Source: Candidatus Moraniibacteriota bacterium (GTDB lineage Bacteria > Patescibacteriota > Minisyncoccia > Moranbacterales > UBA2206). Taken from it: a stretch of DNA of 64,000 bases. A program made the position numbers and the translations under genes. The notes below the pieces were generated by a model. The model worked only from the letters and a program-made list of their open reading frames with translations, did not search any database and had not been told where the DNA came from. Where the stretch lies: the NCBI GenBank assembly GCA_030645735.1, contig JAUSNP010000006.1, positions 132,095 to 196,094 of the forward strand. The letters run 5' to 3'. Below are positions 1-61,799 of this stretch, piece after piece (within the stretch, counting starts at the first letter, position 1; each line of letters opens with the position of its first letter).

Positions 1-12
1 GATTTTTTTAAG

Positions 13-240
13 ATGGGGGAAAATATTCATATAAAACATGTTCGTGACTATATTGTTTTTTGTTCACAAAAAACCATCAATGATGTAAGAAGTTTCTTGA
101 TTGCCAAAGCGCCTGATGAATTCCAGAGCCGTGATAACAACAATCAAGAAATTATAAAATATCTAGTTTCACAAGCATTATTCTTATATTCATATCTGGC
201 TAAATCTTCCGTGCATCAACAAGAACAAGACAAGCAATAA
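13..240 (+). CDS. Hypothetical protein; the frame is open to the window edge, so this may be the 3' part of a longer gene
   Basis: ORF ending in a stop, followed by a bidirectional hairpin terminator; no recognisable motifs. Confidence 0.25.
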   Translation: MGENIHIKHVRDYIVFCSQKTINDVRSFLIAKAPDEFQSRDNNNQEIIKYLVSQALFLYSYLAKSSVHQQEQDKQ

Positions 241-276
241 AAAAATCCATCGCATTAAGCTAGATGGATTTTTTTA
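241..276. terminator. Bidirectional rho-independent terminator between convergent genes
   Basis: AAAAATCCATC-loop-GATGGATTTTT inverted repeat flanked by A/T runs. Confidence 0.6.
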
Positions 277-286
277 TGCGTCACTA

Positions 287-1114
287 TTATTTCACAAGCT
301 CATAATTCTTACTCTTCCAAACATCTAGACCGTCAGAAAGAGTGAGGGTATTGAAGACTCCCATATCAAACAATCGAACGCCGGCCTTGAAAGCCCACAA
401 TCCATCATTATCATAGAGCACGATTTTTTTGTTGGATGGAATTTCAGTGCGTTTCTTTTCTAAATCTTCTAGAAAAATGTTGACGGCACCTTTTATATGC
501 CCCTCATCGAACTGATTCTTTTTGCGCACATCAATGATAGTTAAATAATCACCCGCTTCCAACATTTCTTTCAATTTGTCTGTCTGGATGTAGGTGACTT
601 TTGATTGATCAATAAATGAATTTGGATCACCTGCGGAAACTGTTGAGTTGAAGCCTTCCTTCCAGCCATCAAAGCCTCCGTCTAAATAGGCTATATTTTT
701 AAATCCAGCATCAGTCAAGATTTTGACGATTGTGGCGATTGCTTCCACCGATGAATCATAATTGATAATGGTGTAATTTTTATCCTTATCCAGTGGCAAC
801 ATAGCATCCATAATAGTTGGCAAGGGCGTATTTTGTGAGTCCAGCAAATGCTCTTTGGCAAAATCATCCGCACCACGGACATCAATAAGAGTCAGATCGC
901 TTTGGCGATCCAGCATTTTTTTGACCAAATCACTGGCAGAAATTTTGGCGGCTTTTTTTATATTTTCGGCCGCAGCATTTTTAGGCGCCTCGCTGGCTTT
1001 CTTGGCAACATCCTGTGATTTGTTCAACCGAAAAAAGGCTAATCCAGCTATAAGAATAATCAATGCAAACCCAACGATTATGGCGACAAGATTGCTATTG
1101 TGATCTTTTCGCAT
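287..1114 (-). CDS. Membrane-anchored tandem rhodanese-domain sulfurtransferase
   Basis: N-terminal TM helix; two rhodanese-like segments (IDVRGADDFAKEHL and IDVRKKNQFDEGHIKGAVNI). Confidence 0.65.
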   Translation of the reverse strand: MRKDHNSNLVAIIVGFALIILIAGLAFFRLNKSQDVAKKASEAPKNAAAENIKKAAKISASDLVKKMLDRQSDLTLIDVRGADDFAKEHLLDSQNTPLPTIMDAMLPLDKDKNYTIINYDSSVEAIATIVKILTDAGFKNIAYLDGGFDGWKEGFNSTVSAGDPNSFIDQSKVTYIQTDKLKEMLEAGDYLTIIDVRKKNQFDEGHIKGAVNIFLEDLEKKRTEIPSNKKIVLYDNDGLWAFKAGVRLFDMGVFNTLTLSDGLDVWKSKNYELVK

Positions 1115-1118
1115 AGTG

Positions 1119-2069
1119 TTAATTTAAATCTAGAATACTGCCAACAAAATTTTTATAGCCATTGGAAAAATCAAGAATTTTTGTAGCAGGCCTACCTTCC
1201 AATTGTACTTCTTTAAGTTCAATCGCGCCAGAACCTGTTTGCGCAAAGATAGTATTATCAATTCGAAAAACTTCACCAATCTCATGCGCATCAAGATTAT
1301 CCATAGTAATTTCAATGACATTTAATTTCAAACGCTTGCCGTTCCAAGTCGTAAAAATTCCAGGCCAATTACAGAAAGCCCGATATTTGTTAAAAATAAT
1401 TTCAGCCGGGGCATTCCAATTGATCTGACCTTCTTCTTTGCGAATCATCTTACAGTATGACGCTTCATCACCGTTTTGTTTTTGCGGTTCAGCTTGGCCC
1501 GCAAGTAGTTTGGGTAAAGTTTCTAGGAGTAATTTCACCGATATGTTAGTCAGCTTTTTTTCTAGTTCGAAATAGGTTTCGTTGTCATCGATGGCAATTT
1601 GTTCTTGTTGCAAAATGTCACCCGTATCAATCCCAGCATCCATCAACATGATAGTCGTGCCGGTTATTTTTTCACCAGCTAGTAACGCGCTTTGAATGGG
1701 GGATGGGCCACGGAATTTTGGCAGGAGTGAAGGATGGATATTGACTGCGCCTAGCCTAGGCAAATCCAAAACGACCTGGGGCAAAATTTTGCCATAGGCG
1801 ATGAGCACAATCAGATCTGGATTTTGTTCACGTAATTTTTCAATGGCATCTTCGTCCAATCTCCTTGGATCAAAAACTGGAATAGAGTTTTTCTCCGCCA
1901 AGATTTTGACTGGTGATTTTTGTAAGACTTGTTTGCGTCCAACTTTCTTATCTGGCTGAGTATAGACGCCGACGACATTGTAGTTATCTTGAAGAAGCGC
2001 CTCAAGAATATTGGCTGAAATTTCAGGCGTGCCCATAAAGATAACTCGTAAATCTTTTTTGTCTAACAT
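1119..2069 (-). CDS. fmt: Methionyl-tRNA formyltransferase
   Basis: MGTPEIS N-terminus; NIHPSLLPKFRGPSPIQ signature of formyltransferase family. Confidence 0.9.
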   Translation of the reverse strand: MLDKKDLRVIFMGTPEISANILEALLQDNYNVVGVYTQPDKKVGRKQVLQKSPVKILAEKNSIPVFDPRRLDEDAIEKLREQNPDLIVLIAYGKILPQVVLDLPRLGAVNIHPSLLPKFRGPSPIQSALLAGEKITGTTIMLMDAGIDTGDILQQEQIAIDDNETYFELEKKLTNISVKLLLETLPKLLAGQAEPQKQNGDEASYCKMIRKEEGQINWNAPAEIIFNKYRAFCNWPGIFTTWNGKRLKLNVIEITMDNLDAHEIGEVFRIDNTIFAQTGSGAIELKEVQLEGRPATKILDFSNGYKNFVGSILDLN

Positions 2070-2225
2070 ATTTTTTTAATAACCAATAACCAAAATATAG
2101 GCGTTAAGTAAATTACAAAGACCAAGATACAATAACCAAATAAAATTCAAATTTCAAACATCAAACTACAAACCTTTGTTTATTGAATTTTGAGTATTGA
2201 TATTTGTTTGGTGCTTGTCTTTTGG

Positions 2226-2717
2226 TTATTGTTTCTTTTTTAGTATATCTTGTTTTTTGTTCTTTTGACGTAGTCTTACTTCTTTTTCGATATAAAGTTT
2301 TCCGTCCAAATGGTCAATTTCATGTTGTAACGCGCGAGATAAAAGACCTTCAGCCTTGATAGTGATCTCTTCGCCCAATTCATTTTGTGCTTTGACGCGA
2401 ACTTTTTTGGGTCGTTTGACCGGAATGAATTTTCCAGGGAATGATAAACAACCTTCCTCCCAAGTTTCTTGCAACCAAGATTTATATGTTACACGCGGAT
2501 TGATTAAAATGTAAGTTATGCCATCAACCTTGATTACGCACAGTCGTACTGATTTGCCGACTTGCGGAGCAGCCAAACCGACACCATTATTCAAATCCAT
2601 CGTTTCCAGCATATCTGCAATCAACTTTTTGATAGCAGGTTTTTTGACATCTAAAATCGGCTCAGTTTTTTTGAGAAGGATTGGGTCTGGATATTCGACT
2701 ATCTTTAGTTCAGCCAT
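2226..2717 (-). CDS. def: Peptide deformylase
   Basis: GVGLAAPQVG, EGCLSFPG and QHEIDHLDG motifs. Confidence 0.9.
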   Translation of the reverse strand: MAELKIVEYPDPILLKKTEPILDVKKPAIKKLIADMLETMDLNNGVGLAAPQVGKSVRLCVIKVDGITYILINPRVTYKSWLQETWEEGCLSFPGKFIPVKRPKKVRVKAQNELGEEITIKAEGLLSRALQHEIDHLDGKLYIEKEVRLRQKNKKQDILKKKQ

Positions 2718-2725
2718 GAAATTTT

Positions 2726-2913
2726 TAGAGTCTGTTTATAATCTCATGCCTAGATAAAATATTATAATTTCGTGCGAAAACCGTGAAAAGTGAGGAAGGC
2801 TATCGAGATAACCTGACGAGCTTTGAAGGGTTTGCAGCCGAAATTAGAATATTTTAGCAGGCAAGCAATATATTAGTTTTTAAAATAAGCGGTGAGATTA
2901 TAAACAGACTCTA
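2726..2913. repeat. Perfect 20-bp inverted repeat (TAGAGTCTGTTTATAATCTC / GAGATTATAAACAGACTCTA) bracketing the whole def-priA intergenic region
   Basis: The two arms are exact reverse complements, separated by 148 bp. Confidence 0.6.
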
Positions 2914-4920
2914 TATTATACTAATTGGGTCAACATCGATGAGCCAGCCAGTTGGCAAGGACTCGATGATAGTTTTGATTTCTGAGGGTAGTTCTTTATT
3001 TTTCAGTTTTATAATAATTTGTTCTCGATGTCGGCCACGCACATTGGCAATGAAAGATTTTTGCGGTTCTGAAATACCAATCTGTTCGCCAATGAATTTT
3101 TCTAGTGTTGCATAGAGTGTGCGAGTGGCAACAGAAACTTTCTTGGCATCATAGTCTTGGAAAACCAATTTGATCAATTTGCCGAAAGGCGGCAATGACA
3201 AATCTTTTCTGGCTTTGATTTCACGCGCAAAGAATTTTTCAAAATCGCGCTCAGCGGCGAAACGGAAAAGTTCCAAGTTTGGATTAAAGGTTTGAATAAT
3301 GACTACTCCACGGAATTTGGCATGCGGTCGATTGGATCGACCAGACACCTGCACGATATTTGAATATGCTCGATAATTCACGGAAAAATCAGGTATAGAA
3401 ACCATATTATCCGCGTCAATTATACCAATCAAAGCCATATTTGGCAAGTCCCAACCCTTGGTCAACATTTGCGTGCCAATTAAAATATCAATCTTGCCTT
3501 CGGCAAAATCATGGTAGGTTTTTTCTTGCGCGCCAGCTTCTTTCATAGTCTGTGAATCCATACGTCCAATTTTGGCCGAAGCAAACATCGAGGCCATTTC
3601 GCGTTCAATTTTTTGGGTACCTAATCCAATGTTTTGAAAAACTAAACTCTTGCATTTGGAGCAAGTGGGTGTGATAGAAGATTGAAAAGTGCAACTGACA
3701 CATTTATACACCCCGCTATTATCATAAATCAACGCCCGTTCACATTTCGGACAGCGTAAAACGGTTTTGCAACCAGCGCAGATAGAAAAACTACTCATGC
3801 CTTGGCGATTGATGAACAAAATTGTTTGCAAACCATTTTTCAAAGCATAGGCAATTTCACTGCGCAACTTGCGTGAGATGGGGGAATGATTTTTCTCCCA
3901 TTTTTCTTTTTTCAAATCCACAAGCAAAACTTCCGGTCCATCATAATCCTTTTTCGGTGCGCCAGGAATTTGCAGATGCGGAATTTCTACGAGTGCGAAT
4001 TCTTGATCAAGAGTTTTTTGAAAGGATTCAATGCTGGGTGTAGCGGAACCGAAAATGATTTTGCATTTGTGCAATTCAGATAATTTTTCGGCCACTGTGC
4101 GCGCATCATAGCGCGGATTCATATCCCATTGTTTGAAAGACATGTCTTGCTCTTCATCCACCACAATCAGCCCTAGTTTTTTGAAAGGCGCAAAAACCGC
4201 CATGCGGGTGCCGATGACAATTTTGATTTCACCTGATTTGATTTTCTGCCACTGCGTGAAAAATTCACCCTTGGAAACCTTGCTCGTCAACACGGCAATA
4301 TTTTCTCGCCCAAATTGCGCGCTATACCTCTCAATGGCTTGAGGTGTCAAAGTCAGTTCTGGTACCAAAATCAAAGTCTGCTCATTTTTCTTGAGCTTCT
4401 TGATACTTTCAATATAAACTTCAGTCTTGCCACTACCCGCTGGACCGAAAAGCAAAAAACGTGGAACGTGGAACGTGGAACGTGGAACCTCTTGTGCAAT
4501 TTTTTCTATGGCCAATACTTGTTCTTTAGTTAATATAATATTTTTTTCTAGTTTTGCGTTATACGTTTCGCGTTTCGCGTTTCGCGCTTTTACGCGTTTC
4601 GGCACAAAAGATTTCATCACAATGCCCAGTGGTGAGAAATAATACTCTGAAATAAATTGAGCTAATTTGATTTGTTTAGCCTCTAAAAAATTCTCTTCAA
4701 TTACACCCAAAATATTTTTTAATTCAATATTGCCCAAGCGTGCAAAGTCTGGTCGATACCCAGTCACAATGCCTTGTACCTTGCGATGAAAAAGTGGCAC
4801 CTCCACTAAAGATCCAGCTGGAATTTCAACATCGGACAAATACGAAAAAGACTGATTCCGCGATAGGGGAATCCTTGCAATCGGCACGACATCAACGATG
4901 ATTTTGGCAGATTTTTTCAT
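2911..4920 (-). CDS. priA: Primosomal protein N' (replication restart helicase PriA)
   Basis: Walker A FGPAGSGKTEVY, DEEQD box, Cys-rich zinc-binding insert (CAGCKTVLRCPKCE...CVSC), C-terminal helicase motifs. Confidence 0.85.
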   Translation of the reverse strand: MKKSAKIIVDVVPIARIPLSRNQSFSYLSDVEIPAGSLVEVPLFHRKVQGIVTGYRPDFARLGNIELKNILGVIEENFLEAKQIKLAQFISEYYFSPLGIVMKSFVPKRVKARNAKRETYNAKLEKNIILTKEQVLAIEKIAQEVPRSTFHVPRFLLFGPAGSGKTEVYIESIKKLKKNEQTLILVPELTLTPQAIERYSAQFGRENIAVLTSKVSKGEFFTQWQKIKSGEIKIVIGTRMAVFAPFKKLGLIVVDEEQDMSFKQWDMNPRYDARTVAEKLSELHKCKIIFGSATPSIESFQKTLDQEFALVEIPHLQIPGAPKKDYDGPEVLLVDLKKEKWEKNHSPISRKLRSEIAYALKNGLQTILFINRQGMSSFSICAGCKTVLRCPKCERALIYDNSGVYKCVSCTFQSSITPTCSKCKSLVFQNIGLGTQKIEREMASMFASAKIGRMDSQTMKEAGAQEKTYHDFAEGKIDILIGTQMLTKGWDLPNMALIGIIDADNMVSIPDFSVNYRAYSNIVQVSGRSNRPHAKFRGVVIIQTFNPNLELFRFAAERDFEKFFAREIKARKDLSLPPFGKLIKLVFQDYDAKKVSVATRTLYATLEKFIGEQIGISEPQKSFIANVRGRHREQIIIKLKNKELPSEIKTIIESLPTGWLIDVDPISII
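4459..4488. repeat. Tandem heptamer repeat (ACGTGGA)x4 inside priA, in-frame (encodes VPRSTFHVPRF)
   Basis: Direct reading of acgtggaacgtggaacgtggaacgtggaac. Confidence 0.8.
4553..4602. repeat. Tandem CGTTTCG-type heptamer repeat inside priA, in-frame (encodes KARNAKRETY)
   Basis: cgtttcgcgtttcgcgtttcgcg plus flanking degenerate units. Confidence 0.75.
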
Positions 4921-5072
4921 AGCTCCATTATACCAATCTTATGATTACTCCGCCAATTAGCATTAAACGAATCAATTTTTTAGTTGCATTGACCTTACAA
5001 TAGGATTACCATGAAATCATGAGTCAGTTGTTTTATTTATTAATATTCTAAAAACTGAGGCGGAGGCTGAAA

Positions 5073-5426
5073 ATGTTCAAAAAAATCGCAACATTGGAGA
5101 TTGATGGATGCGGTTTGATTTTCAGCCGCATAGTTTTAGACAGAGTTATCTTATTGGCATCTGGAATGCTACTAAGAAGATCGGGCAAAGGTGAGATTAG
5201 GAATGACTCTTGCCAAGGAATGCTCTCAACAATCTTTCAGAAAATGCCAATGGGTGGCACTGAATTCAATCTTGAATTAGAAATTCAAGGAAAAGTAACC
5301 ACATCAAAGCTTGGGCTGATTCGCGTAGCTACCAGAGAGGAGTTGGGTTCATACATATGGGCAGAATCTTGCTCAATGGAAAATTCCAACAGAAAGTCCT
5401 ATGCATTAATCTGGGACAGAAGATGA
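5073..5426 (+). CDS. Hypothetical protein
   Basis: GGAGG RBS 8 nt upstream of the ATG; own hairpin terminator downstream. Confidence 0.4.
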   Translation: MFKKIATLEIDGCGLIFSRIVLDRVILLASGMLLRRSGKGEIRNDSCQGMLSTIFQKMPMGGTEFNLELEIQGKVTTSKLGLIRVATREELGSYIWAESCSMENSNRKSYALIWDRR

Positions 5427-5448
5427 TCTATCTTTATAGTTTGCAGAT

Positions 5449-5483
5449 CAGGGAGTTGGATTTTTTCTAGCTCCCTGTTTTTA
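5449..5483 (+). terminator. Rho-independent terminator
   Basis: CAGGGAG-loop-CTCCCTG stem followed by TTTTTATT. Confidence 0.6.
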
Positions 5484-5524
5484 TTGCATCAAACCTTGCT
5501 TTTAGGCTCTGAATAGGCTAAAAT

Positions 5525-6073
5525 TTGAATATGAAACGAAAAATCTTTATTAATATCAATTTGCCGGATCGGACGAAAAAACGGCTAACTAGAGCCATCG
5601 AGAGATGGGCGGATTTGCCAGTGAAGTGGGTGCGAGAGGAAAATCGGCATGTTTCTTTGTTTTTCTTGGGTTTTGTGGATGACGATTCGACCTACGAAGT
5701 GTGCGAGGCGGTCACTCGAGCGGCGCAAACTGAGGAGATTTTTGACATTGAATTTGACACCATCAAATTCAGTCCATCGGCCGAAGATCCACGTATGGTT
5801 GTGGTGACTGGTCAGCCCAATGAAAATTTGCGCAACTTGGCCGAAAAAATTGAAAAAGAACTCGGCATTTTTTCCAGTTCCAAAAAAGAATTTCGTCCGC
5901 AAATCACTCTAGGCAAAGTTCGCAAAAATATGTGGAATGAGCTTGCAGAGAAGCCAGTAGTTGATAAAGAATATCCATTATTGGCTACGGTAGAGAGCGT
6001 AGATGTGATGGCCAGCAACTTTGAAGGTGATGACGCCGAATTTGCCATTATTGAAAGTTGCCAGTTAGCGTAG
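5525..6073 (+). CDS. 2H phosphoesterase / RNA 2',3'-cyclic phosphodiesterase (LigT/ThpR-like); second catalytic His replaced by Gln
   Basis: First H-x-S-x motif HVSLFFLG is present; second motif reads RPQITLGK instead of RPHITLG. Confidence 0.5.
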   Translation: MNMKRKIFININLPDRTKKRLTRAIERWADLPVKWVREENRHVSLFFLGFVDDDSTYEVCEAVTRAAQTEEIFDIEFDTIKFSPSAEDPRMVVVTGQPNENLRNLAEKIEKELGIFSSSKKEFRPQITLGKVRKNMWNELAEKPVVDKEYPLLATVESVDVMASNFEGDDAEFAIIESCQLA

Positions 6074-6106
6074 CAACTCGTAACTAGTAATTAGTAACTA
6101 GCAAAT

Positions 6107-6886
6107 ATGAGTAGTATTTTGGGAGTTACAATTGATAATTTTTCTAAACAAGAAATACTTCACAAAGTAGACACTTTTTTATTAGAAGACTGTTTCCATC
6201 AAATAGCCACAGTCAATCCGGAGTTTATTTTGCAAGCGCAAAAAGACGCAGAATTCAAAAGCATTCTGAATGCTTGTGATTTGCACGTAGCAGATGGGGT
6301 TGGTATTTGGTTTGCTTTTTTACGCTTCGGGAGCTTCTTGAAAAACAGAATGACTGGCATTGATTTGATGTCGGATATTTTGCGCATGGCCAATGAAAAA
6401 AAGTTGAAAGTTTTTCTGGTTAGCTATGCTGGCGCTTTGAGTTCGTGGGAAGAAACAAGGGATGCTATTGCGAAAATTTATCCTAATTTAGAAATTAATG
6501 GAGCAAATTTAAACACTGTCATTGCGAGGAGAGAAACGACGAAGCAATCTCATACTGATACACAAAAGTCTGGTGAGTCTAAAAAGGAGATTGCCACGCT
6601 CCTTTCAGTCGCTCGCAATGACATTGTGTTTTGCAATTTAGGAATGTCTAAACAAGAAAAATTCCTGCACTCGCTAAAAACCCTAGAAAATGCTAAAATA
6701 AAACTAACAATGGGAGTGGGTGGCAGCTTCGATTTCTTGACTGGTAAGCGCCAAAGAGCCCCAAAATTTTTGCAAAAAATCGGACTGGAATGGCTGTGGC
6801 GCTTTGTCCAAGAACCGAAATATCGCGCCAAAAGAATTTTTCACGCCGTGGTGATTTTTTCAATCAAAGTAATTTTTAATTTGTAA
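6107..6886 (+). CDS. WecG/TagA/CpsF-family glycosyltransferase (GT26) carrying a ~35-aa in-frame insertion of a palindromic element
   Basis: HQIATVNPEF, DGVGIWFA and LGMSKQEKF motifs typical of the family; the insert lies between them. Confidence 0.7.
   Translation: MSSILGVTIDNFSKQEILHKVDTFLLEDCFHQIATVNPEFILQAQKDAEFKSILNACDLHVADGVGIWFAFLRFGSFLKNRMTGIDLMSDILRMANEKKLKVFLVSYAGALSSWEETRDAIAKIYPNLEINGANLNTVIARRETTKQSHTDTQKSGESKKEIATLLSVARNDIVFCNLGMSKQEKFLHSLKTLENAKIKLTMGVGGSFDFLTGKRQRAPKFLQKIGLEWLWRFVQEPKYRAKRIFHAVVIFSIKVIFNL
6517..6623. mobile_element. Palindromic element family A, copy 1 (TGTCATTGCGAG...CTCGCAATGACA), inside a coding sequence
   Basis: 12-bp terminal inverted repeats; ~90 percent identical to the copy at 30528-30634 when reverse-complemented. 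Confidence 0.75.
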
Positions 6887-6887
6887 A

Positions 6888-6920
6888 TCGTTTTGCGTTC
6901 TACGCTTCACGATTTGCGCA
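6888..6920. repeat. CG-period-7 heptamer repeat (CGTTTTG CGTTCTA CGCTTCA CGATTTG CG) at the gene junction and N-terminus of the next ORF
   Basis: CG dinucleotide recurs exactly every 7 nt. Confidence 0.6.
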
Positions 6921-7333
6921 AATCTATGACACCGAAAACAAAGTTGATTCGTACAGTCTATCTGTACATCGCAGCTCTGGGTAGTTTGATTTTCGTAGCC
7001 AGCGGTACTGGTATGCTTATCAACACGGGTTTGAAATATTATGTTTTTCCCAAAGCTGAAAAAGGAGGATATAGTCAATGTAACCAACAACCCCCTGTTT
7101 ATGGTCTAGAGAAAAGTGGTTATGTTGCAATTTCCACAGCTGACCAAAAGATCCAATTGGAAAATCTTTTGAATGATTATGCGCAATGGAAACAAAATAA
7201 TACTGGCGAAGAATGCTATATTGCACAAAGACAATCCACAATCGTGGATGCTTTGACTATGATTGTCATTGCACTGCCAATTCTTTTGTTGCACTGGATA
7301 ATTATCAAAAAAGAAAAAGCTGAAAAAGAATAA
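6893..7333 (+). CDS. Hypothetical membrane protein (2 TM)
   Basis: ORF with hydrophobic segments; start uncertain (an alternative ATG lies at 6926). Confidence 0.35.
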   Translation: MRSTLHDLRKSMTPKTKLIRTVYLYIAALGSLIFVASGTGMLINTGLKYYVFPKAEKGGYSQCNQQPPVYGLEKSGYVAISTADQKIQLENLLNDYAQWKQNNTGEECYIAQRQSTIVDALTMIVIALPILLLHWIIIKKEKAEKE

Positions 7334-7413
7334 TATTATGATGCTTGGGATTATAATTATTTTTGTGATTTTCATCGCCGCCAGCGCCTGGATAATTTTT
7401 AGTAAAGATAACG

Positions 7414-7767
7414 GTGATAAGTAGTATACAGAAAATTTCAGGCATTGTTGTGAAAGGCAAGCAAAAAGGTCGTAAGTTGGGTTTTCCAACTGCCAATTTA
7501 GCATTAAACAATTCCACAATACAAAGCGGGGTTTATGTTGGCAAGGCTAATTTCGCTGGCGGAAAATATACGGCAGCAATTTTTGTACCAGATTCAGGTG
7601 ATTTACTTGAGGCGCATATTCTGGATTTTCAGGGTGATCTATATGGTCAGGAAATCGAAATTGAAATTGGCCAAAAAATTCGCGAAGTGATGAAATTTGA
7701 AAATAAAGCAGGTTTGATCAAACAAATATCAAAAGACCTATTACAAATCAGAAAGGCTAAGTCATAA
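7414..7767 (+). CDS. Riboflavin kinase (monofunctional; RibF C-terminal-domain type)
   Basis: GRKLGFPTANL motif; length fits a kinase domain only. Confidence 0.7.
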   Translation: MISSIQKISGIVVKGKQKGRKLGFPTANLALNNSTIQSGVYVGKANFAGGKYTAAIFVPDSGDLLEAHILDFQGDLYGQEIEIEIGQKIREVMKFENKAGLIKQISKDLLQIRKAKS

Positions 7768-7780
7768 TTCCAAAAATTTT

Positions 7781-8371
7781 ATGTTTACGGGTATTATTCA
7801 AAAAGTTTCTGTGGTAGAAAAAGTTTCGCGAAAAAATAACAGCCTTTTTGTGTCAGTGAAAATTCCAACCAAATGGAAAGTTTGGCAAGGTGAAAGCATT
7901 GCAATTGATGGAGTTTGTTCGACAGTCAAAAGTTTGACCAAAAAAGATTTCACGGTGGAATATATGCCAGAAACAATCCAAAAAACTATCGTGGGAAATT
8001 TCGCCAAAGGCACAGAAGTGAATTTGGAAAGAAGTCTCAAACTAAATGATTTGTTGGATGGTCACATAGTTCAAGGACATGTGGACACAACTGGTCAAAT
8101 CATGGAAATCAAGAAAGTTCAAGAATCCAAAGTTATCAAAATAAAAATTCCCAGCAGTTTTATGCGTTTGGTGGTGGACAAAGGTTCAGTGACCATCAAT
8201 GGTATCAGTCTAACAGTTGTTGTCACAGGCAAGAATTGGTTCACAATTTCTCTGGTCAGCTATACTTTAGAAAATACCAATCTGGGCACGATTGCGGTTG
8301 GTGATAGTGTGAATATTGAAACAGATGTTTTGGCAAAATATGTAGAAAAATTAATTAAGCATAGGAAATAA
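7781..8371 (+). CDS. ribE: Riboflavin synthase alpha subunit
   Basis: MFTGII N-terminus and two lumazine-binding repeats. Confidence 0.85.
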   Translation: MFTGIIQKVSVVEKVSRKNNSLFVSVKIPTKWKVWQGESIAIDGVCSTVKSLTKKDFTVEYMPETIQKTIVGNFAKGTEVNLERSLKLNDLLDGHIVQGHVDTTGQIMEIKKVQESKVIKIKIPSSFMRLVVDKGSVTINGISLTVVVTGKNWFTISLVSYTLENTNLGTIAVGDSVNIETDVLAKYVEKLIKHRK

Positions 8372-8375
8372 GACT

Positions 8376-8786
8376 ATGGCAAAAAATATCGCAATTATTC
8401 TGGGTTCTTTTCACAAGAATCAAGTGGAAGAAATGTTGGATGAAGCCAGGAAGACTGCCACTGAATTTGACTTGAACATTATTGAGGAGATTTGGGTGCC
8501 TGGGTCATATGAAAAACCATTGGTATTGAAAAGTCTATTGTCACGTAATGACGTGGCTGGAGCAGTAGTTTTGGGCATCATTGAAAAAGGCGAGACCAAG
8601 CACGGCTTGATTATGGCGCAAGCTGTGATGGGAAAAATTTTGGATTTGGAATTGGAATATATGAAACCAGTAGGCATTGGAATTTTGGGACCAGAAATTT
8701 TGCCAGAGCAGATTCCTGTCCGCTTGCGACCCTATGCCAATGCTGCAATCAAAGCCACTAAAAAAATGTTGGATATAGTGATGTAG
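8376..8786 (+). CDS. ribH: 6,7-dimethyl-8-ribityllumazine synthase
   Basis: IAIILGSFH...VPGSYEKP pattern; ~136 aa. Confidence 0.85.
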   Translation: MAKNIAIILGSFHKNQVEEMLDEARKTATEFDLNIIEEIWVPGSYEKPLVLKSLLSRNDVAGAVVLGIIEKGETKHGLIMAQAVMGKILDLELEYMKPVGIGILGPEILPEQIPVRLRPYANAAIKATKKMLDIVM

Positions 8787-8908
8787 ACGCGGATAATGAG
8801 ATAATAAAAAAAATATTAAAAAGAGCTTGATTTAGGTATTTAGATGTCTTTGATTTTTCCTGAAAAAGTGCTAAAATACAGAAGCTTTAGGATTAAAATA
8901 CAATATTT

Positions 8909-10462
8909 ATGGATAAAAAAGTCAGGGTCAGATTTGCGCCGTCACCGACGGGTTATTTGCATGTTGGAGGCTTGCGAAGCGCTTTATATAACTATTTGTT
9001 CGCCAAGAAAAATGGCGGGGATTTTATTTTGAAAATAGAAGACACAGACCGTAAGAGATTTGTCGAAGGTGCTGTAGAGAGCTTGATTAGCTCTTTGGAT
9101 TGGGTGGGACTCAATCGCAATGAAGGCGTGTTTTTGAAAGAGCATGTTTTGAATCCAGAGAATAAGAAAATCATTGAATCTGCAAGTTATCCAGGCGTGA
9201 TGGAAATAGGAGAATTTGGACCATATATCCAATCAGAAAATTTAGCTGTGTATAAAAAATATGCGGAGGAGCTGGTGGCTGCTGGCAAGGCTTATTATTG
9301 TTTTTGTGAACAAGAGAGATTGGACCAAGTCAAAGCAGAACGCATCGCCAACAAACAAGCGCCAATGTATGATCGCTATTGTTTGAAAAATGTCAGCGCG
9401 GAAGAAGTCAATGAAAAGTTGAAATCCAATTGCGCCTACACAATTCGCTTGAAAGTCCCAGCGGATGAAGTCATTGAATTTGAAGATTTGATTCGTGGCA
9501 AAGTTTCTATCAACTCCAACACAGTTGATGACCAAGTCCTGATGAAATCGGATGGTTTTCCAACCTATCATTTGGCCAATGTGATTGATGATCATATGAT
9601 GGGCACCACGCAAGTGATTCGTGGCGAGGAATGGTTGCCGAGTACGCCAAAACATATTTTGTTATATCGCGCTTTTGGCTGGGACATTCCTGAATTTGCC
9701 CATCTACCTCTTTTGCTCAGCACTGACAAAAAGAAATTATCCAAACGCATGGGGGATGTAGCTGTGGAAGATTATATCAAGAAAGGCTATTTGAAAGAAG
9801 CGATCATCAACTTCGTGGTGCTTTTGGGTTGGAACATTGGCGACGGTAGCACGCAAGAAGTTTTTTCATTGGCAGAATTGGAACAAGTTTTTGACTTGAA
9901 GCGCGTACACAAGGCTGGTGCAGTTTTTGATTTGAAAAAATTGGATTGGCTCAATGCGCAATATATCAAAAAACTTTCGGTGGATGAATTGTATGAAAAA
10001 TCCTTGGAATTTTTTGCGCAAAAAGAATTTTACAAGACGTGGAACGTGGAACGTGAATCGTGGAGCGCAGAAGAGAAAGAAATATATTTGAAAAAAGTTT
10101 TACAAATTGAACAAGAACGTTTGAACAATTTGTCTGAGGTGGGGGAGAACAATCAGTTTTTCTTTGCACCCATCGCCTATGACAAAACCATGCTCAACTG
10201 GAAGGATATGTCGCCAGAAGCATTGCGAGAATCACTGCAAAAATCAATTGAAACACTGAGCGGAATTTCTGAAGAAAATTGGGAACTGAAAAACATTGAA
10301 GAAAAACTTTTTGCTACCGCCGGAGACAAAAAAGGTGATTTGCTGTGGCCACTCCGCGTGGCTTTGTCGGGTGCGCAAAAATCTCCCTCACCAATGGAAT
10401 TGGCTTGGGTCTTGGGCAAAACTGAATCTTTGCAACGATTACAAAACGCATTGGAAAAATAA
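8909..10462 (+). CDS. gltX: Glutamyl-tRNA synthetase
   Basis: RFAPSPTGYLHVGG (HIGH motif) and KLSKR (KMSKS motif). Confidence 0.9.
   Translation: MDKKVRVRFAPSPTGYLHVGGLRSALYNYLFAKKNGGDFILKIEDTDRKRFVEGAVESLISSLDWVGLNRNEGVFLKEHVLNPENKKIIESASYPGVMEIGEFGPYIQSENLAVYKKYAEELVAAGKAYYCFCEQERLDQVKAERIANKQAPMYDRYCLKNVSAEEVNEKLKSNCAYTIRLKVPADEVIEFEDLIRGKVSINSNTVDDQVLMKSDGFPTYHLANVIDDHMMGTTQVIRGEEWLPSTPKHILLYRAFGWDIPEFAHLPLLLSTDKKKLSKRMGDVAVEDYIKKGYLKEAIINFVVLLGWNIGDGSTQEVFSLAELEQVFDLKRVHKAGAVFDLKKLDWLNAQYIKKLSVDELYEKSLEFFAQKEFYKTWNVERESWSAEEKEIYLKKVLQIEQERLNNLSEVGENNQFFFAPIAYDKTMLNWKDMSPEALRESLQKSIETLSGISEENWELKNIEEKLFATAGDKKGDLLWPLRVALSGAQKSPSPMELAWVLGKTESLQRLQNALEK
10038..10065. repeat. Heptamer repeat ACGTGGA/ACGTGAA x4 inside gltX, in-frame (encodes TWNVERESW)
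   Basis: acgtggaacgtggaacgtgaatcgtggag. Confidence 0.75.
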
Positions 10463-10474
10463 TTTCCAAGAAGT

Positions 10475-11722
10475 ATGAGCAAAATAAAAAACAAAAAAAT
10501 AACTATTTCCAATATTGCCATATTATCGGCCACTATTTCCGTGTGGTCAGCTTTTAGTTTTTTAAGCAGGGATGTAGCCCAGGCCTCTAATTGTGATACG
10601 ATTGTTGACGCGACTAAGAAAAATCAATGCATAGCCTTGGAAAAGAAAGCGCAGGCCTATCAAGATATTATTGATATCAAGGTTAAGCAACAAACCACTT
10701 TGCAAAAACAAATGGCTTTGATTGATGCTGAACAATCCAAAAATCAATCAGCCTTGCAAGAAGTGCATGAAAAATTTCAAACTGTTTCACAGCAAATTTC
10801 CAGTTTAGAAAAAAGGATCTCCAGTGAAGAAGAGCAAATTGATCAGCAAAAAATAATCCTTTCTGGACTTATGCGCGTATACTACGAAGATTATCAGCGG
10901 GGAGTGCTAGATGTTGTTTTGGTTGACAAGGACTTTTCAGAATTTATGAATCAATCTGACTATGTGCAACAATCTAGCTTGAAAGTTTCGGATGTGTTGA
11001 AATCCATTCAGTATATCAAAGCAGATTTGGAAAATCAGAAGACAGACTTGGAAGGCAAGAAAGCTGAACATGAACAACTCCAGGGACAACTGGAAGAAAA
11101 GAATTTGAATTTACAAAAAACTGAAAATCAAAAGCAAACCTTGCTTGGTCAAACCAAGGCTGAGGCGGAAAAATATCAAAGTTTATTAGCTAACATTGAA
11201 GATGAAATTAGCGCCTTGGAACAGAATCTTGCTGGCACCATAAATTATGCTAATTTACCACCAGACAAAAGCGGTTATTTCACTTGGCCAGTCAATCCAC
11301 ATGTCATTACACAAGGCTATGGTAAAACAGCCTTTGCCAGGTCATCTGGAATGTATAAAAATAACTTTCATAATGGCTTAGACTTCGGCATAAAATTTAG
11401 CAATTTATACGCCGCCAAGGGTGGCAAGGTGGTCGGTTCAGGTGACAATGGTAAATATGCCTATGGCAAATGGTTGGCGATTGATCATGGTGATGGCCTA
11501 GTGACGCTCTATGGTCATCTAAGTGTCAAAAATGTCACCAATGGCTCCAAGGTCACTGAAGGTCAAAAGATTGGCGTGACTGGCAACACTGGCAACTCAA
11601 CTGGTCCACATTTACATTTTTCAGTTTTTGCTTCCAACACTTTCAAGACAGTTGAGTCATCCTATGTCAAAGGACTTATGATTCCGACTGGTGCGCCTGT
11701 GACTCCAAGAAAATATTTATAA
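10475..11722 (+). CDS. M23 family metallopeptidase with N-terminal signal/TM and long coiled coil (EnvC-like)
   Basis: HNGLDFG...HLHF LytM motifs; Q/E/K-rich heptad region. Confidence 0.8.
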   Translation: MSKIKNKKITISNIAILSATISVWSAFSFLSRDVAQASNCDTIVDATKKNQCIALEKKAQAYQDIIDIKVKQQTTLQKQMALIDAEQSKNQSALQEVHEKFQTVSQQISSLEKRISSEEEQIDQQKIILSGLMRVYYEDYQRGVLDVVLVDKDFSEFMNQSDYVQQSSLKVSDVLKSIQYIKADLENQKTDLEGKKAEHEQLQGQLEEKNLNLQKTENQKQTLLGQTKAEAEKYQSLLANIEDEISALEQNLAGTINYANLPPDKSGYFTWPVNPHVITQGYGKTAFARSSGMYKNNFHNGLDFGIKFSNLYAAKGGKVVGSGDNGKYAYGKWLAIDHGDGLVTLYGHLSVKNVTNGSKVTEGQKIGVTGNTGNSTGPHLHFSVFASNTFKTVESSYVKGLMIPTGAPVTPRKYL

Positions 11723-12142
11723 AATTATTTTTCTATCCTAAAAAAAATGGCTCAATCACATTTTTGAGTCATTTTTGATTTTGGGCATCTCAAAGGGGGA
11801 TAGTCAGGTTCCTTGGAAATAAAAACCCAAAAAAGGTGTTTTTGGGTATACATCAATGTATGTCTAATTTGGGCAAGCTGGGTTCAAAACGTCAAATTTA
11901 AGGTCAGAAATTTTTTCGACAGAAATTTCGGATACATGGCAGTATATAAAAATAAAAAAATACTTTTGCAAATATTTTTTTATTTATGTATTTAGTTTTG
12001 AGATAGCGACACAAAAGAGTTCGAATGGGATAGGTAGGTGTATCTATGTATTAAGCGTACTCAGCCTTAGATTCTTTTGTGCAGTGTCGTAAAAGATAGA
12101 TTGTGCGACACTGTCCATATTTCAAGATGCACACTTCCCCTT

Positions 12143-12712
12143 CTAAATTTGGGTATTTTTTGGATTATAGCTTTTTATAAAACTAATTGGTTCTTTCCAA
12201 TATTCAATCTCCGTAATGTTCTCACCCTTCTCCTGCTCCTTGAAATAGCCTGGCAAAACTTTTCCGTGAAATGGTCCAGCATAAATTCCAAAATGCAGAT
12301 GCTCCTCTTCCCAAGCTCCATTGGACTCACTTAGCGACTTCCCAATAGTTCCCATTAGTCCACCCATCTCAATCGTGTCACCTCTTTTCACGAAACGCCT
12401 ACCTAGATGGCCATACAAGGAATAGAAAACTTTTTTTGTTTTTGGATCCTTGTGCGCGATGATGACGATACCACCCCAATTTCTTTTAGTAACTTCACCG
12501 CTTTCGGAAAATTCCCCGGGATGCAATTTTGAATACACAACGATACCTCGACCAATGGAAAAAACTTTCGTTTCCACAGGTGCTGAGATGTCGATGCCAA
12601 GATGTCTGCCCCACAGTTTTTTGTCATACACATTCATCTCGCCAAAACCAGAAGAAATGTTTTTGAAATTTCCCACTGGGAACATTAGATTGGGTGTGAC
12701 TCGATACGCCAT
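12143..12712 (-). CDS. M23 family peptidase
   Basis: HLGIDI...HLHFGIY motifs. Confidence 0.7.
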   Translation of the reverse strand: MAYRVTPNLMFPVGNFKNISSGFGEMNVYDKKLWGRHLGIDISAPVETKVFSIGRGIVVYSKLHPGEFSESGEVTKRNWGGIVIIAHKDPKTKKVFYSLYGHLGRRFVKRGDTIEMGGLMGTIGKSLSESNGAWEEEHLHFGIYAGPFHGKVLPGYFKEQEKGENITEIEYWKEPISFIKSYNPKNTQI

Positions 12713-12793
12713 ATACGCAACTCACGAATGTAAAACGAATTTTCGGCAAATTAATGCTAATATTTTTCGTTTTAATTCGCTTTAGATTAGTGT

Positions 12794-13183
12794 TTAATTT
12801 GTGAGTTTACTTTGATAATCCTTGATGGCTTCATGCAAGGCCTCGTCAGCCAGATTTGAACAATGCATTTTGATCGGCGGCAAACCTTCTAAAGCATCGG
12901 CCACATCATTGCGTGTGATTTTCAACGCCTGCTCAATAGTTTTACCCATCGCCAAATCTGTCACCATAGATGAAGTGGCAATGGCTGAGGCGCATCCTAG
13001 AGTTTCAAATTTGATATCCTTGATTACATCCCCTTTTTCTTTGTCCTGCTTGACCTTAATATAAATCTTCATCAAATCACCACACACTGGATTGCCCACC
13101 ATACCAACGCCAGAAGCGTTTTTAATCACCCCCTGATTGTGAGGTCGCGTGAAATGATCGAGAACTTTTTTTGAATATTGCAT
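12794..13183 (-). CDS. iscU: Fe-S cluster assembly scaffold IscU/NifU
   Basis: GNPVCGDLMKIYIKV and LGCASAIATSS motifs with conserved Cys. Confidence 0.85.
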   Translation of the reverse strand: MQYSKKVLDHFTRPHNQGVIKNASGVGMVGNPVCGDLMKIYIKVKQDKEKGDVIKDIKFETLGCASAIATSSMVTDLAMGKTIEQALKITRNDVADALEGLPPIKMHCSNLADEALHEAIKDYQSKLTN

Positions 13184-13188
13184 AGTAT

Positions 13189-13238
13189 TCGTGGAACGTG
13201 AATCGTGAATCGCGTAACACTGCGGTTCACGTTACGCG
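13189..13238. repeat. Heptamer repeat (CGTGGAA CGTGAAT CGTGAAT CG) fused to an 8-bp-stem hairpin CGCGTAAC...GTTACGCG, in the iscU-iscS junction
   Basis: Direct reading of the sequence. Confidence 0.7.
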
Positions 13239-14477
13239 TTATGCTTTATGAGATTTATTATAGTATTCCCCTAGTATATTTCCGGAAATCTTGCGCAATC
13301 TTTCTACGATTGTTTTCAATTTTTTCACTGCTGCATCAATTTCCTGTTTGGTTGTATATTTGCCAAGCGTGAATCGCAATGATCCATGCGCTTGTTCAGC
13401 CTTGAGTCCAATAGACAATAAGACATGCGATGGTGACAATGCGCCCGATGAACAGGCTGAACCAGTTGAACAAGCGATGCCTTCCATGTCCAATGACAAC
13501 AAGAGTCCCTCCCCTTCCACATCCGCAAAACTGAAATTGGCATTGTTAGGTGAGCGTAAAATTTTTGAACCATTCAAAACTGCTTTGGGAATTTCTTTGG
13601 AAACCTTGGCTATCAAATAATCCCGCAACTCCAAAACTTTGCGATTTACGTTTTGCGTTTTGCGGTTTGCGATTTGCTCAATGGCTTTACCAAATCCAAC
13701 AATGCCCGGCACATTATGTGTACCAGCCCGCATTTTATATTCCTGATCACCACCATCCTGTATTTTTTTGATAGTAGTCCCCTTTTTGACATACAACATG
13801 CCTACACCCTTAGGTCCATAAATTTTGTGCGCTGACATCGACAGCAAATCTACACTCAATTTTGCCACATTGCAATCAAAATAATTCACCGCTTGCGTCG
13901 CGTCAGTGTGAAACAAAAGTTTGAATTCATTTTCTTTTTTAGTTGCGTTCAGTTTCTTCACTAGTTTTCCAATTTTTTCAATTGGTTGCACCGTGCCAAT
14001 CTCATTGTTCACATACATCACTGAAATCAAAATTGTGTTTGATTTGATAGCCTTGGCGATATCACTAACCTTAATCAAGCCGTCCTTGTCCGGTTTGATA
14101 TAGGAAACTTCAGCTAAACCTTCTTTTTCCACAGTCTTACATGAATCCAGAACACAATGATGCTCAAAGGCAGTGGTGATGATATGTGGTTTGATCTTGG
14201 CATTTTCAGCCTTAGAATAATATGATTTCAAAACGCCCTTAATAGTGATGTTATTTGATTCAGTAGCACCACTAGTAAAAATTATTTCTGATGGCACAGC
14301 GCCAAAAAAAGTTGCAATCTTGCCGCGTGCCGAGTCCACTGCTTGCAGAGCGTCTTGCCCAAAAGAATGAATTGACATGGCATTGCCAAAATTCTCAGAA
14401 AAATATGGCAACATTTCCTTCAAAACTTCTTTGTCTGCTGGTGTAGTAGCGGCATAATCCAAATATATTCTTTTCAT
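13239..14477 (-). CDS. iscS: Cysteine desulfurase
   Basis: PLP-lysine region SAHKIYGPKGVG; C-terminal active-site Cys (CSTGSACSS); carries an in-frame heptamer insert. Confidence 0.9.
   Translation of the reverse strand: MKRIYLDYAATTPADKEVLKEMLPYFSENFGNAMSIHSFGQDALQAVDSARGKIATFFGAVPSEIIFTSGATESNNITIKGVLKSYYSKAENAKIKPHIITTAFEHHCVLDSCKTVEKEGLAEVSYIKPDKDGLIKVSDIAKAIKSNTILISVMYVNNEIGTVQPIEKIGKLVKKLNATKKENEFKLLFHTDATQAVNYFDCNVAKLSVDLLSMSAHKIYGPKGVGMLYVKKGTTIKKIQDGGDQEYKMRAGTHNVPGIVGFGKAIEQIANRKTQNVNRKVLELRDYLIAKVSKEIPKAVLNGSKILRSPNNANFSFADVEGEGLLLSLDMEGIACSTGSACSSGALSPSHVLLSIGLKAEQAHGSLRFTLGKYTTKQEIDAAVKKLKTIVERLRKISGNILGEYYNKSHKA
13639..13677. repeat. CG-period-7 repeat (CGATTTA CGTTTTG CGTTTTG CGGTTTG CGATTTG) inside iscS, in-frame (encodes ANRKTQNVNRKV)
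   Basis: Direct reading of the sequence. Confidence 0.75.
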
Positions 14478-14491
14478 ATTTTTTAATTTTT

Positions 14492-14887
14492 TTATTTATT
14501 ATTCACCAAATCACTCAACTTTATTCCCCGTAATGTTTTTTCAATTTGAATGCCGAGAATTTCCCACACAACCTTAGATGAACACAGATGCTCCATTTTG
14601 CAAACCTTGCCCACGCATTTCATTGGCGCAATTGGACCTTCCAGTGCAATGACGATGTCAGCCACACTGATTTTCTTAGCTGGAATTTTCAAGGCATATC
14701 CCCCATTAGTGCCCTTGAAACTATCCACTAAGTCATATTTTCGCAAAACATTCAAAAGGCGCTCCAGATATTTGATCGAGATCGACTCTTCTTTGGCAAT
14801 CAATTTGATGTTCTTAATTTTGGCTTCATCTTTTGCTAGATTAACCATCGCTTTGAGGCCATATTCCGCTTTAGTGGAAAACTTCAT
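14492..14887 (-). CDS. iscR: Rrf2-family transcriptional regulator (IscR-like), first gene of the isc operon
   Basis: Rrf2 wHTH N-terminus (KAEYGLKAM...ISIKYLERLL...GTNGGYAL); C-terminal Cys residues. Confidence 0.8.
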   Translation of the reverse strand: MKFSTKAEYGLKAMVNLAKDEAKIKNIKLIAKEESISIKYLERLLNVLRKYDLVDSFKGTNGGYALKIPAKKISVADIVIALEGPIAPMKCVGKVCKMEHLCSSKVVWEILGIQIEKTLRGIKLSDLVNNK

Positions 14888-14904
14888 AATGTAACTCCTA
14901 CTAA

Positions 14905-14917
14905 ATTAGTATACATT
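14905..14917. promoter_or_regulatory. Palindrome TACTAA-A-TTAGTA just upstream of the iscR start; candidate Rrf2 auto-operator
   Basis: 6-1-6 palindrome ~15 nt upstream of the start codon. Confidence 0.3.
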
Positions 14918-15168
14918 CATGATACAAAAAAACCTGACGTGAGTCAAGTCTGTATTTGGGGCTTATATTAGCTGGGTGATTTCATAAGAAACAGACACTA
15001 CGACTATCAAAAACACTGAAATAATGATTGCCAATGCAAATTTGAACAACTCGTCTTGCTCTGGCTTTTTCACATCCTTAAGCATATTTGTTTTTGTATT
15101 AATATCCTTACACCTACATTATAAGACTACTCACCTTTTCTGGCAAGTCCCCTGTTTGACCGCTAGAT

Positions 15169-16341: not shown

Positions 16342-16359
16342 TCATAATTTAATTACTGC

Positions 16360-16698: not shown

Positions 16699-16712
16699 AA
16701 AATTAGTGACTT

Positions 16713-43245: not shown

Positions 43246-43872
43246 ATGAAAATCATCACTATTTCCGGCGTAGATGGCTCAGGCAAATCGACCCAAATCA
43301 AACTTTTGCAAGCATATTTAGAATCGCAAGGTCAGCGGGTTTTTTATTTCCATGCCATCGAGTTTGGTCTAGCCACAAAACTAGCCAATTTCAAGAAAAA
43401 ATATTGCCTGATTTGCAAAATCAAAGGCCTATGTCAAATCAAGCCCACCGAAGCCAAAAGCGTCATCAAGGCCAATTGGTTGCAAATCCAACTGCGCAAA
43501 ATCTTCCTACGCATCGACATCTGCCGTTTCAAAAAACTCCTCAAAAAATTAGAAAAGGAGAAATTCGACTATCTCCTGAGTGATCGATTCTTTTACGATA
43601 CAGTCATAAATATTCACTATCTTGAAAATTCTGACATTAAAAATTCGGCCTTGATTCGAAATTCGAAATTCGAAATTCAGAATTCTTTTTATATGGACAT
43701 ATCTCCTGAACAAATCATGCAACGTGAAAGAAAGCCCGATCAAGGCCTTGAATATTTGCAAAAAAAGACTGGGTTATTCAAACAAAAAATTACTGATTGG
43801 AATATGCAAATCATTGACGCCTCAGAAAATAAAGAGATAGTTTTTGATAAAATAAAAAAGGGCCTAAGCTAA
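43246..43872 (+). CDS. tmk: Thymidylate kinase with in-frame heptamer-repeat insert
   Basis: ISGVDGSGKSTQ P-loop and DRFFYDT (DRY-like) motif. Confidence 0.7.
   Translation: MKIITISGVDGSGKSTQIKLLQAYLESQGQRVFYFHAIEFGLATKLANFKKKYCLICKIKGLCQIKPTEAKSVIKANWLQIQLRKIFLRIDICRFKKLLKKLEKEKFDYLLSDRFFYDTVINIHYLENSDIKNSALIRNSKFEIQNSFYMDISPEQIMQRERKPDQGLEYLQKKTGLFKQKITDWNMQIIDASENKEIVFDKIKKGLS
43655..43687. repeat. Tandem heptamer (TTCGAAA)x3 plus degenerate units inside tmk, in-frame (encodes IRNSKFEIQNS)
   Basis: attcgaaattcgaaattcgaaattcagaattc; CG every 7 nt. Confidence 0.75.
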
Positions 43873-61716: not shown

Positions 61717-61799
61717 GTCTTATAGTCTAATTATAGACGATTGATAGACGATTGTCAATACTAGATTTTTATGGCTTAATACAGCCACTCTCACCCCCG

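Follow-up and report, generated by a model that had tools for sequence, protein, structure and literature searches.

Three heptanucleotides, CCCCAGT, TTGGTCA and CAACAGT, reportedly described by Mazel et al. in 1990, form the short tandemly repeated repetitive (STRR) sequences of cyanobacteria. The arrays considered here were found in a 64,000-nt stretch of contig JAUSNP010000006.1 (the window), which belongs to a metagenome-assembled genome (MAG) of Candidatus Moranbacteria (candidate phyla radiation, CPR, or Patescibacteria) with a GC content of ∼39%. Like the STRR sequences, they consist of short heptamer tandems scattered over the genome, with no established function or origin. The STRR family, however, has few fixed units per genome and is reported to be mainly intergenic, whereas the units of Moranbacteria are many, site-specific and located in coding loops. 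In many bacteria, heptanucleotides are the most abundant class of long simple sequence repeats (SSRs), with polymerase slippage as their proposed source, according to PMC4679880 and PMC4692102, both of which cite Mrazek et al. 2007. The likeness of the Moranbacteria arrays to these prokaryotic long SSRs (Mrazek, Guo and Shah 2007, PMC4679880/PMC4692102) extends to tandem 7-nt units, to a period 7 above the other periods of 5–11 nt, to lineage-specific occurrence and to the proposed origin by slippage. In those surveys, the repeats found inside genes most often were those with units in multiples of three, whereas about three quarters of the Moranbacteria heptamers lie within open reading frames (ORFs), in frame and at recurrent positions.

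Elements of four heptamers occur within and between genes in Geobacter metallireducens, with the units GGGACCG/GGACCGG (49 copies) and MTYCTGA (15 sites) (PMC2700814). The Moranbacteria arrays are similar in size, about four to five tandem heptamers each, and in location, within genes and between them; unlike the Geobacter family, which has one genome-wide consensus unit and came to light as a repeated element in BLAST searches, they have no common unit, and at least five different ones are used in the window. The GGGAATC and GGGGAYT repeats of Xanthomonas and Nostoc prefer about four units (PMC4692102), TAACTGA repeats characterize Beggiatoaceae (PMC4679880), and a regulatory role has been suggested for heptamer repeats that lie near gene starts in Nostoc (bioRxiv 10.1101/2022.06.06.494920). 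Common to these repeats and to those of Moranbacteria are the preference for about four units, the variation of length and sequence at one locus between close relatives, and the occurrence of some inverted pairs, comparable with the intergenic composites of the window; a TAGTAAC array of the window also carries stop codons, as TAACTGA does. The Moranbacteria units differ from those of Xanthomonas and Nostoc, which are G-rich and quadruplex-forming. Rickettsia palindromic elements (RPEs) are in-frame insertions of ∼100–150 nt in essential genes, with a conserved sequence and a clean presence/absence pattern. As with the heptamer arrays, the repetitive DNA is in frame and is tolerated by surface loops of housekeeping proteins, but the arrays are ∼30 nt long, tandem rather than palindromic and without conserved sequence. 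A closer analogue of RPEs is provided by hairpin inserts of relatives (encoding PAGRQG and PSPxxGRGG).

Literature searches that joined CPR names to SSRs or heptamers gave no description of such arrays; in one of them, no listed result contained an SSR or heptamer term. An excess of heptamers in bacteria is not new in itself; what is added here is the CPR host, a coding location that is mostly in frame, the many units and the turnover of units at orthologous protein positions. Arrays of ∼4–5 units characterize the lineage rather than this genome. They are probably STRR-like heptanucleotide microsatellites that reside in permissive loops or short spacers, evolve in concert and are kept in frame by selection.

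Excess of period 7 and location of the arrays

CG runs of at least four units occur six times in the window at period 7 and at none of the other periods between 3 and 14; CGTGGAACGTGAATCGTG, with up to three mismatches, matches the window six times against 0.00 in 100 shuffles. Tandem arrays were located with Tandem Repeats Finder (TRF), which gives coordinates, unit, copy number and percentage of match. In 0.52 Mb of Moranbacteria DNA, made of the window and related loci (L numbers below), 66 arrays of period 7 were found against 0.1 in dinucleotide-preserving shuffles. The lineage-specific N-terminal domain of PriA, used as query in a metagenome scan, gave 37 related loci, and the gene order of window positions ∼1 to 17,000 is preserved in most. 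Control DNA consists of priA loci of other phyla, 79 of 80 recovered with the full PriA alignment (universal helicase motifs). Period 7 accounts for 64 of the 173 arrays in the Moranbacteria DNA versus 19 of the 263 in the 1.42 Mb of control loci, which are dominated by periods 12, 15 and 21. The heptamer density is ∼120 arrays per Mb, ∼9-fold above that of the control, but because all related loci are centred on priA, both figures describe this neighbourhood, with the same hot spots counted repeatedly. The first-pass annotation of the window had held the pattern to be non-random, in agreement with these counts. A typical array has ∼4–5 units and a median length of 30 nt; 47 of 61 lie in frame inside ORFs, most of them in protein loops and away from gene starts. 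With 57 canonical unit classes in 102 TRF rows, the arrays depart from a fixed-unit, mainly intergenic family of the STRR type.

The seven CG-rich sites listed in the first-pass annotation are all present where it had placed them (Table 1), as seen by inspection of the sequence and by TRF at six sites (period 7, 3.4–5.7 copies, 82–100% match, in head-to-tail order), the seventh, at the WecG/DUF5671 junction, being recognized by five CGs at 7-nt spacing (6889–6923). Two intergenic elements, this junction and the iscS–iscU spacer, had been described as tandem arrays; they are composites with heptamers in both orientations. The window also contains CG-free heptamer arrays, such as that of TAGTAAC, which overlaps the LigT stop codon and has stops in all three frames. 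Host genes were correctly named, the products being PriA, GltX and a class-V aminotransferase (IscS/NifS) adjoining NifU/IscU. For the ORF named tmk, the Pfam Thymidylate_kin match is confined to the P-loop, and homologues carry a dTMP kinase annotation. Translations confirm that the four coding hosts (priA, gltX, iscS and tmk-like) stay open across their arrays, which are in frame.

Table 1. Heptamer arrays and composites in the window
Feature	Position	Strand	Units	Encoded peptide
priA site A array	4458..4488	-	TRF AACGTGG x4.4, 100% match; sense GTTCCAC x4.4	VPRSTFHVPRF, PriA residues 145–155
priA site B array	4551..4601	-	TRF 4564–4601 CGTTTCG x5.0; sense CGCGAAA x3 and degenerate units	KARNAKRETYNAK, inside PriA residues 108–123
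Intergenic heptamer array without CG	6071..6101	+	TRF TAGTAAC x4.4: TAGCAAC TCGTAAC TAGTAAT TAGTAAC TAG	
WecG/DUF5671 junction element	6886..6925	+	CG every 7 nt, yet inverted repeat AAATCGT...ACGATTT, GCGT...ACGC	
gltX array	10037..10072	+	ACGTGGA ACGTGGA ACGTGAA TCGTGGA GCGCAGA; TRF 10037–10064 ACGTGGA x4.0	KTWNVERESW, GltX residues 376–385
iscS–iscU spacer composite	13189..13243	-	TRF 13189–13212 TCGTGAA x3.4; heptamers in both orientations; + strand reading CGTGGAA CGTGAAT CGTGAAT CGCGTAA ... TTCACGT TACGCGT	
iscS array	13638..13677	-	TRF TTTGCGA x5.7; sense CAAATCG CAAACCG CAAAACG CAAAACG TAAATCG	QIANRKTQNVNRK, IscS residues 268–280
tmk-like gene array	43654..43685	+	ATTCGAA x3 + ATTCAGA ATTC; TRF 43654–43678 ATTCGAA x3.6	LIRNSKFEIQNS, residues 136–147 of a 208-aa protein

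Site A of PriA lies directly N-terminal to the Walker A strand FLLFGPAGSGKT, and site B lies in the linker that follows FVPKRVKAR and joins the 3′-DNA-binding domain to the helicase core; the GltX peptide is located between the catalytic and anticodon-binding domains. Modelled with AlphaFold on 34 homologues, the window PriA has a mean predicted local distance difference test score (pLDDT) of 82 and a predicted template modelling score (pTM) of 0.82. In this model, site A is a coil with pLDDT <50 at residues 146–150, and site B is part of a long coil with a block pLDDT of 56–64, which places both priA arrays in predicted permissive linkers. At the nucleic acid level, the coding arrays form no DNA structure beyond that of shuffles (fold z from -1.3 to +0.8), and the RNA fold of the iscS–iscU spacer is weak (z = -1.6). 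Only at the junction (6880–6930) is there a clear DNA hairpin, with -9.5 kcal/mol and z = -3.08, none of 200 shuffles being equally stable. No Rfam family reached its gathering score anywhere in the 64-kb window.

Orthologous sites and turnover of the units

Comparison with ∼35 related priA loci shows the same protein positions occupied by other units, mostly CG-free. Most relatives have a heptamer array at PriA site A, and a few lineages lack one; the unit is GTTCCAC in the window, AATACCA in L081 (protein 88% identical), GCGATAC in L085, TTYAAAA in L087, AATTWGA in L089, AAATTGT in L092, TCAAAAT in L093 and AATTACA in L105. At site B, CGCGAAA of the window is replaced by CACGAAA x3 (L093), by AAGCCCA/TAACCCA x8 (L090) or, in other lineages, by hairpin-type inserts. 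The array-bearing segment of IscS measures 39–41 aa with or without an array (42 in L111; 54 in L102, which has an extra insert), with the units CAAAWCG in the window, AAAATCC x5 in L085, AAGTCAA x4 in L101 and L113 and GAATTAT x4 in L111; it is array-free in five other lineages. In GltX, ∼18 relatives have the array-free segment FY.NASEEKKSEEY; the window and L085/L086 share a homologous CGTGGA/CGTGAA array, and L094 and L102 have other inserts at that point. As L085 and L086 are more distant from the window than L081 and L084, where the array is absent, simple vertical descent does not explain this distribution. The tmk-like array region is hypervariable in 120 homologues, several of which contain peptides with a 7-residue period, such as ENWKLIENWKLKIEN.

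The TAGTAAC unit is conserved near one junction in four lineages (window 6071–6101, L081 9364–9394, L085 8597–8616, L109 7365–7394), so that this array, unlike the coding arrays, is conserved in unit and may be a three-frame stop or otherwise constrained. The iscS–iscU spacer (window 13183–13239; L081–L113) ranges from ∼15 nt to >200 nt, with 15–20 nt in some relatives. Long versions contain inverted heptamer arrays (CACGAAA... / ...TTTCATG in L093; CATGAAA x4 in L105) or are filled with large GC-rich hairpins (L094, L108 and L111).

Arrays at the same loop positions across relatives indicate a lineage-wide feature rather than private insertions of this genome. The encoded peptides are not conserved in unrelated lineages; such conservation would have spoken against the first-pass annotation. 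Its description of the arrays as inserted is adequate for gltX, which is 18 nt longer than most orthologues, and for priA site A, with 21 nt over the short allele of one strain, but not for iscS, where the constant segment length leaves no net insertion.

Two comparisons reveal how arrays change. L118 and L119 show 0 substitutions over 18,243 bp, and their sole difference is a 21-nt indel, that is three heptamers, in the priA site A array; likewise PriA sequence P0150, a member of a 90%-identity cluster, lacks exactly the seven site A residues NLKLKIK. Copy number thus changes by whole units between close relatives, on the evidence of the one L118/L119 case. In the tmk-like gene, ATTCGAA ATTCGAA ATTCGAA ATTCAGA of the window aligns without gaps to ATTCAAA x4 in 87%-identical L128, and an identical A-to-G difference recurs three times at intervals of exactly 7 nt, the array keeping its length. 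Here the units have evolved in concert, and many arrays are 100% homogeneous with units that differ between lineages. L126 and L127 are identical and hence show no array change. Among ∼150 PriA sequences, no array-associated frameshift allele was found; with the only polymorphism being a three-unit step of 21 nt, the suggestion that copy number is constrained by the reading frame is upheld. Truncated members of the PriA cluster were considered as frameshift alleles and rejected as contig-end fragments, and the aberrantly short PriA P0138 was set aside because its divergence begins downstream of the array.

The same comparisons account for the CG phasing, which the first-pass annotation had read as a sign of a specific mechanism, of generation or of binding, in place of random slippage. 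Orthologous units are unrelated and mostly CG-free, and CG is no general property of these arrays. In the tmk-like gene, the phased CGs go back to a single A-to-G change that was copied across three adjacent units, as concerted evolution predicts: a CG that arises in one unit and is copied to its neighbours yields a strict 7-nt CG spacing.

Mechanistically, misaligned pairing of repeats during replication or repair may continually duplicate, delete and overwrite units, either by slippage or by out-of-register repair or conversion patches. As a heptamer is not a whole number of codons, selection would let through only conversions that leave the length unchanged and length changes in multiples of 3, such as 21 nt. 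Arrays would be expected to stay short, homogeneous and in frame while their unit drifts, and the 7-nt CG phasing of the window would be a by-product of CG spreading from one unit to its neighbours. The arrays in coding regions probably have no sequence-specific function.

Other repeats and inserts in the lineage

Loop positions that hold heptamer arrays in some lineages are occupied by other inserts elsewhere. GC-rich mini-palindromes, CCTGCC-N0-8-GGCAGG, are found in frame in PriA of relatives and encode PAGR(Q/L)G or PASSAGRQ (L112 3412–3462, L085 11033–11077, L100 7384–7428; also L001, L094, L104, L109 and L110); none occurs in the window. That of L112 splits a heptamer array (ACAAACTACAAACCA / CCTGCCTCGTCGGCAGGCAGG / CAAACTACAAACT). 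Hairpin inserts of larger size, also in frame and of the type CCCTCTCC...GGAGAGGG, encode PSPQPSPxYGRGG or LPSPVRSTGHPLPVTGEEG; they are located at PriA site B of L102, L105, L107, L108, L110 and L111 and in GltX of L102 (6229–6366), in the loops where other lineages have heptamer arrays. PriA site B of L085, L086 and L089 holds another hairpin, AAAGGTCCGACCTT...AAGGTCGGACCTTT. A gene of 191 residues, weakly matching Y1 transposases (PF01797, IS200/RAYT-like), adjoins gltX in L118 (3704–4279) and in L119 and L120 (7526–8101). The lineage with this gene (L118–L120) also has hairpin inserts; the window has riboflavin genes at that place.

Further repeats of the window are intergenic. An inverted pair of period-9 arrays consists of TAAAGTCCG x3.6 (56989–57018) and CTTTATGGA x3.4 (57038–57068), and a similar inverted pair, of the heptamers GTCTAAA / ACTTTAG, is located in the same genome just outside the window (L122 10945–11067). 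About eight copies of CTTGTATCTTG(G/C), 14–21 nt apart, lie at 61800–61970 between a gene for a Fic-domain protein (60670–61716, - strand) and one for a PfkB kinase (62063–63097, + strand); perfect ATAGACGATTG x2 is found at 61733–61754, and the GC skew changes sign near 61800–61970. The 61800–61970 repeats look like an operator or iteron-type array.

Competing explanations and significance

Several observations weigh against microsatellites that evolve in concert as the whole explanation. Concerted change and the three-unit indel are known from one example each, and length-neutral conversion from a single clean case. The arrays are not extremely unstable: they are unchanged between L085 and L124 despite 53 substitutions, and a 30-nt array is identical in L125 and L126 at 86.5% nucleotide identity. 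Length classes of PriA site A (17/18, 21 and 24/25 residues) do not follow 7-aa steps; further in-frame indels act there too, and change by 21 nt only is not claimed. These 17/21/24-residue classes, together with the iscS arrays without net length change, indicate that simple unit-by-unit slippage is insufficient. Strong window arrays are clustered, six out of seven lying within the first 14 kb, and the repeated counting of hot spots around priA limits the density estimates. CG is present in the unit of 6 of 9 window arrays versus 12 of 89 arrays of relatives (Fisher p = 0.001), against a background of 23% for window 7-mers; the six are not independent, three of them belonging to one CGTGGAA/CGTGAAT family. 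This family occupies three unlinked window loci (priA, gltX and the iscS–iscU spacer), all on the + strand, with an exact 18-mer common to the gltX array and the spacer. It recurs in gltX of distant L085 and not of closer L081, and a CGTGGAA array adjoins CGCGTTACGCG, a motif that resembles the window spacer, in iscS of L102, L119 and L120, at another site than the window array. Its presence at unlinked loci and in scattered lineages is unexpected under purely local evolution. The preference for period 7 is not accounted for by the microsatellite reading; to our knowledge, the sole published proposal is that 7 nt corresponds to the stretch of DNA held by the polymerase.

The CGTGGAA/CGTGAAT family gives weight to the most serious rival, a small mobile or dispersed element comparable with the small dispersed repeats of cyanobacteria, which in Nostoc reportedly lie within heptamer repeats, or with RPEs. 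In this case the arrays would be insertions of a ∼30-nt piece, built from heptamers and copied to permissive sites, an unlikely but arguable origin. The shared 18-mer, the same-strand unit in priA, the array of iscS beside CGCGTTACGCG and the gltX array missing in closer relatives would all be understood as copies; the L085 gltX array is ∼25/28 identical (by eye) to the spacer of the window. True mini-inserts do exist in the lineage, namely the CCTGCC...GGCAGG palindromes, one of them within a heptamer array, and the PSPxxGRGG hairpins, and a Y1-transposase-like gene adjoins gltX in L118–L120. However, no common termini, target-site duplication or hairpin were found for the coding arrays, units vary between orthologous sites and between loci, and similarity of units within a genome is only marginally above that between genomes (permutation p ∼0.04–0.07). 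The iscS arrays bring no net insertion, the tmk difference is an in-place conversion, and no Y1 transposase gene is present among the window ORFs examined around gltX, where riboflavin genes are found. A related and rather improbable possibility is a process that rewrites stretches of ∼30 nt as heptamers in a length-neutral way, or a tiny heptamer element copied between unlinked sites and lineages. If true, it would cover the iscS arrays without net insertion and the uniform size of 4–5 units, the occurrence of CGTGGAA/CGTGAAT in priA, gltX, the iscS–iscU spacer, a distant gltX and another iscS, and the fact that period 7 is so strongly favoured over periods 6 and 9, which are frame-neutral.

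Proteins that read contiguous heptads are known, and include the omega repressor of pSM19035, ToxT and H-NS at the TTTTGAT repeats of ctx, and CspB, which binds heptamers on single strands. Arrays of binding sites on DNA or RNA for such a protein, with CG as the recognized core, would agree with the uniform array size of ∼4–5 units, the enrichment of CG in window arrays and the TAGTAAC unit common to four lineages at an intergenic junction; regulatory roles have been proposed for the Nostoc and Beggiatoaceae repeats (bioRxiv 10.1101/2022.06.06.494920; PMC4679880). This origin is nevertheless quite doubtful, since orthologous sites do not conserve a heptad in the way of omega/pSM19035 and most units are CG-free, most arrays lie inside genes in protein loops and not near gene starts, an array is simply missing in some lineages and in one strain, and the phased CG of tmk came from the spread of one substitution. 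Contingency loci, in which single-unit slippage would switch priA, gltX, iscS and tmk off and on in the population, are well known for repeats of 1–7 nt in host-adapted pathogens (PMC8262952, PMC12721329), and gain or loss of one 7-nt unit would indeed cause a frameshift. Such phase variation is very improbable here: the hosts are housekeeping genes rather than surface or restriction-modification genes, no out-of-frame allele at the array appears in ∼150 PriA sequences, and the single polymorphism found, of 21 nt, is in frame. An artefact of assembly or sequencing in low-complexity sequence might be suspected, as the source is a MAG and tandem repeats are prone to mis-assembly (PMC6868369), but it is hardly credible. 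The ∼30-nt arrays are shorter than reads and assembly k-mers, identical PriA and tmk proteins are obtained from the NCBI MAG and a Logan assembly, every coding array keeps a long ORF open, arrays are present in >30 independent metagenome contigs, and they recur at the same positions in dozens of independent samples. Other candidates were dropped in the course of the analysis. The target of a diversity-generating retroelement (DGR) was rejected as array differences are whole-unit and not adenine-specific; pattern searches of the window gave no match to a DGR template repeat, and no Pfam match to a reverse transcriptase was found among the 27 window ORFs scanned. CRISPR and telomere-like explanations had no supporting feature.

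The excess of heptanucleotides in bacteria was reported in 2007 and never explained. With in-frame arrays in alignable, single-copy housekeeping genes, the birth, turnover and homogenization of units and their three-unit steps can be read from orthologous sites. The Moranbacteria lineage is an unusually clean natural experiment in this respect, where the reading frame is a known selective filter and hundreds of metagenomic relatives are at hand. The origin of period 7 thereby becomes testable by comparative genomics and read-level population data. For the proteins themselves, low-complexity CPR peptides such as VPRSTFHVPRF are to be seen as by-products of events at the DNA level, and should be taken neither as functional motifs nor as trustworthy alignment columns.

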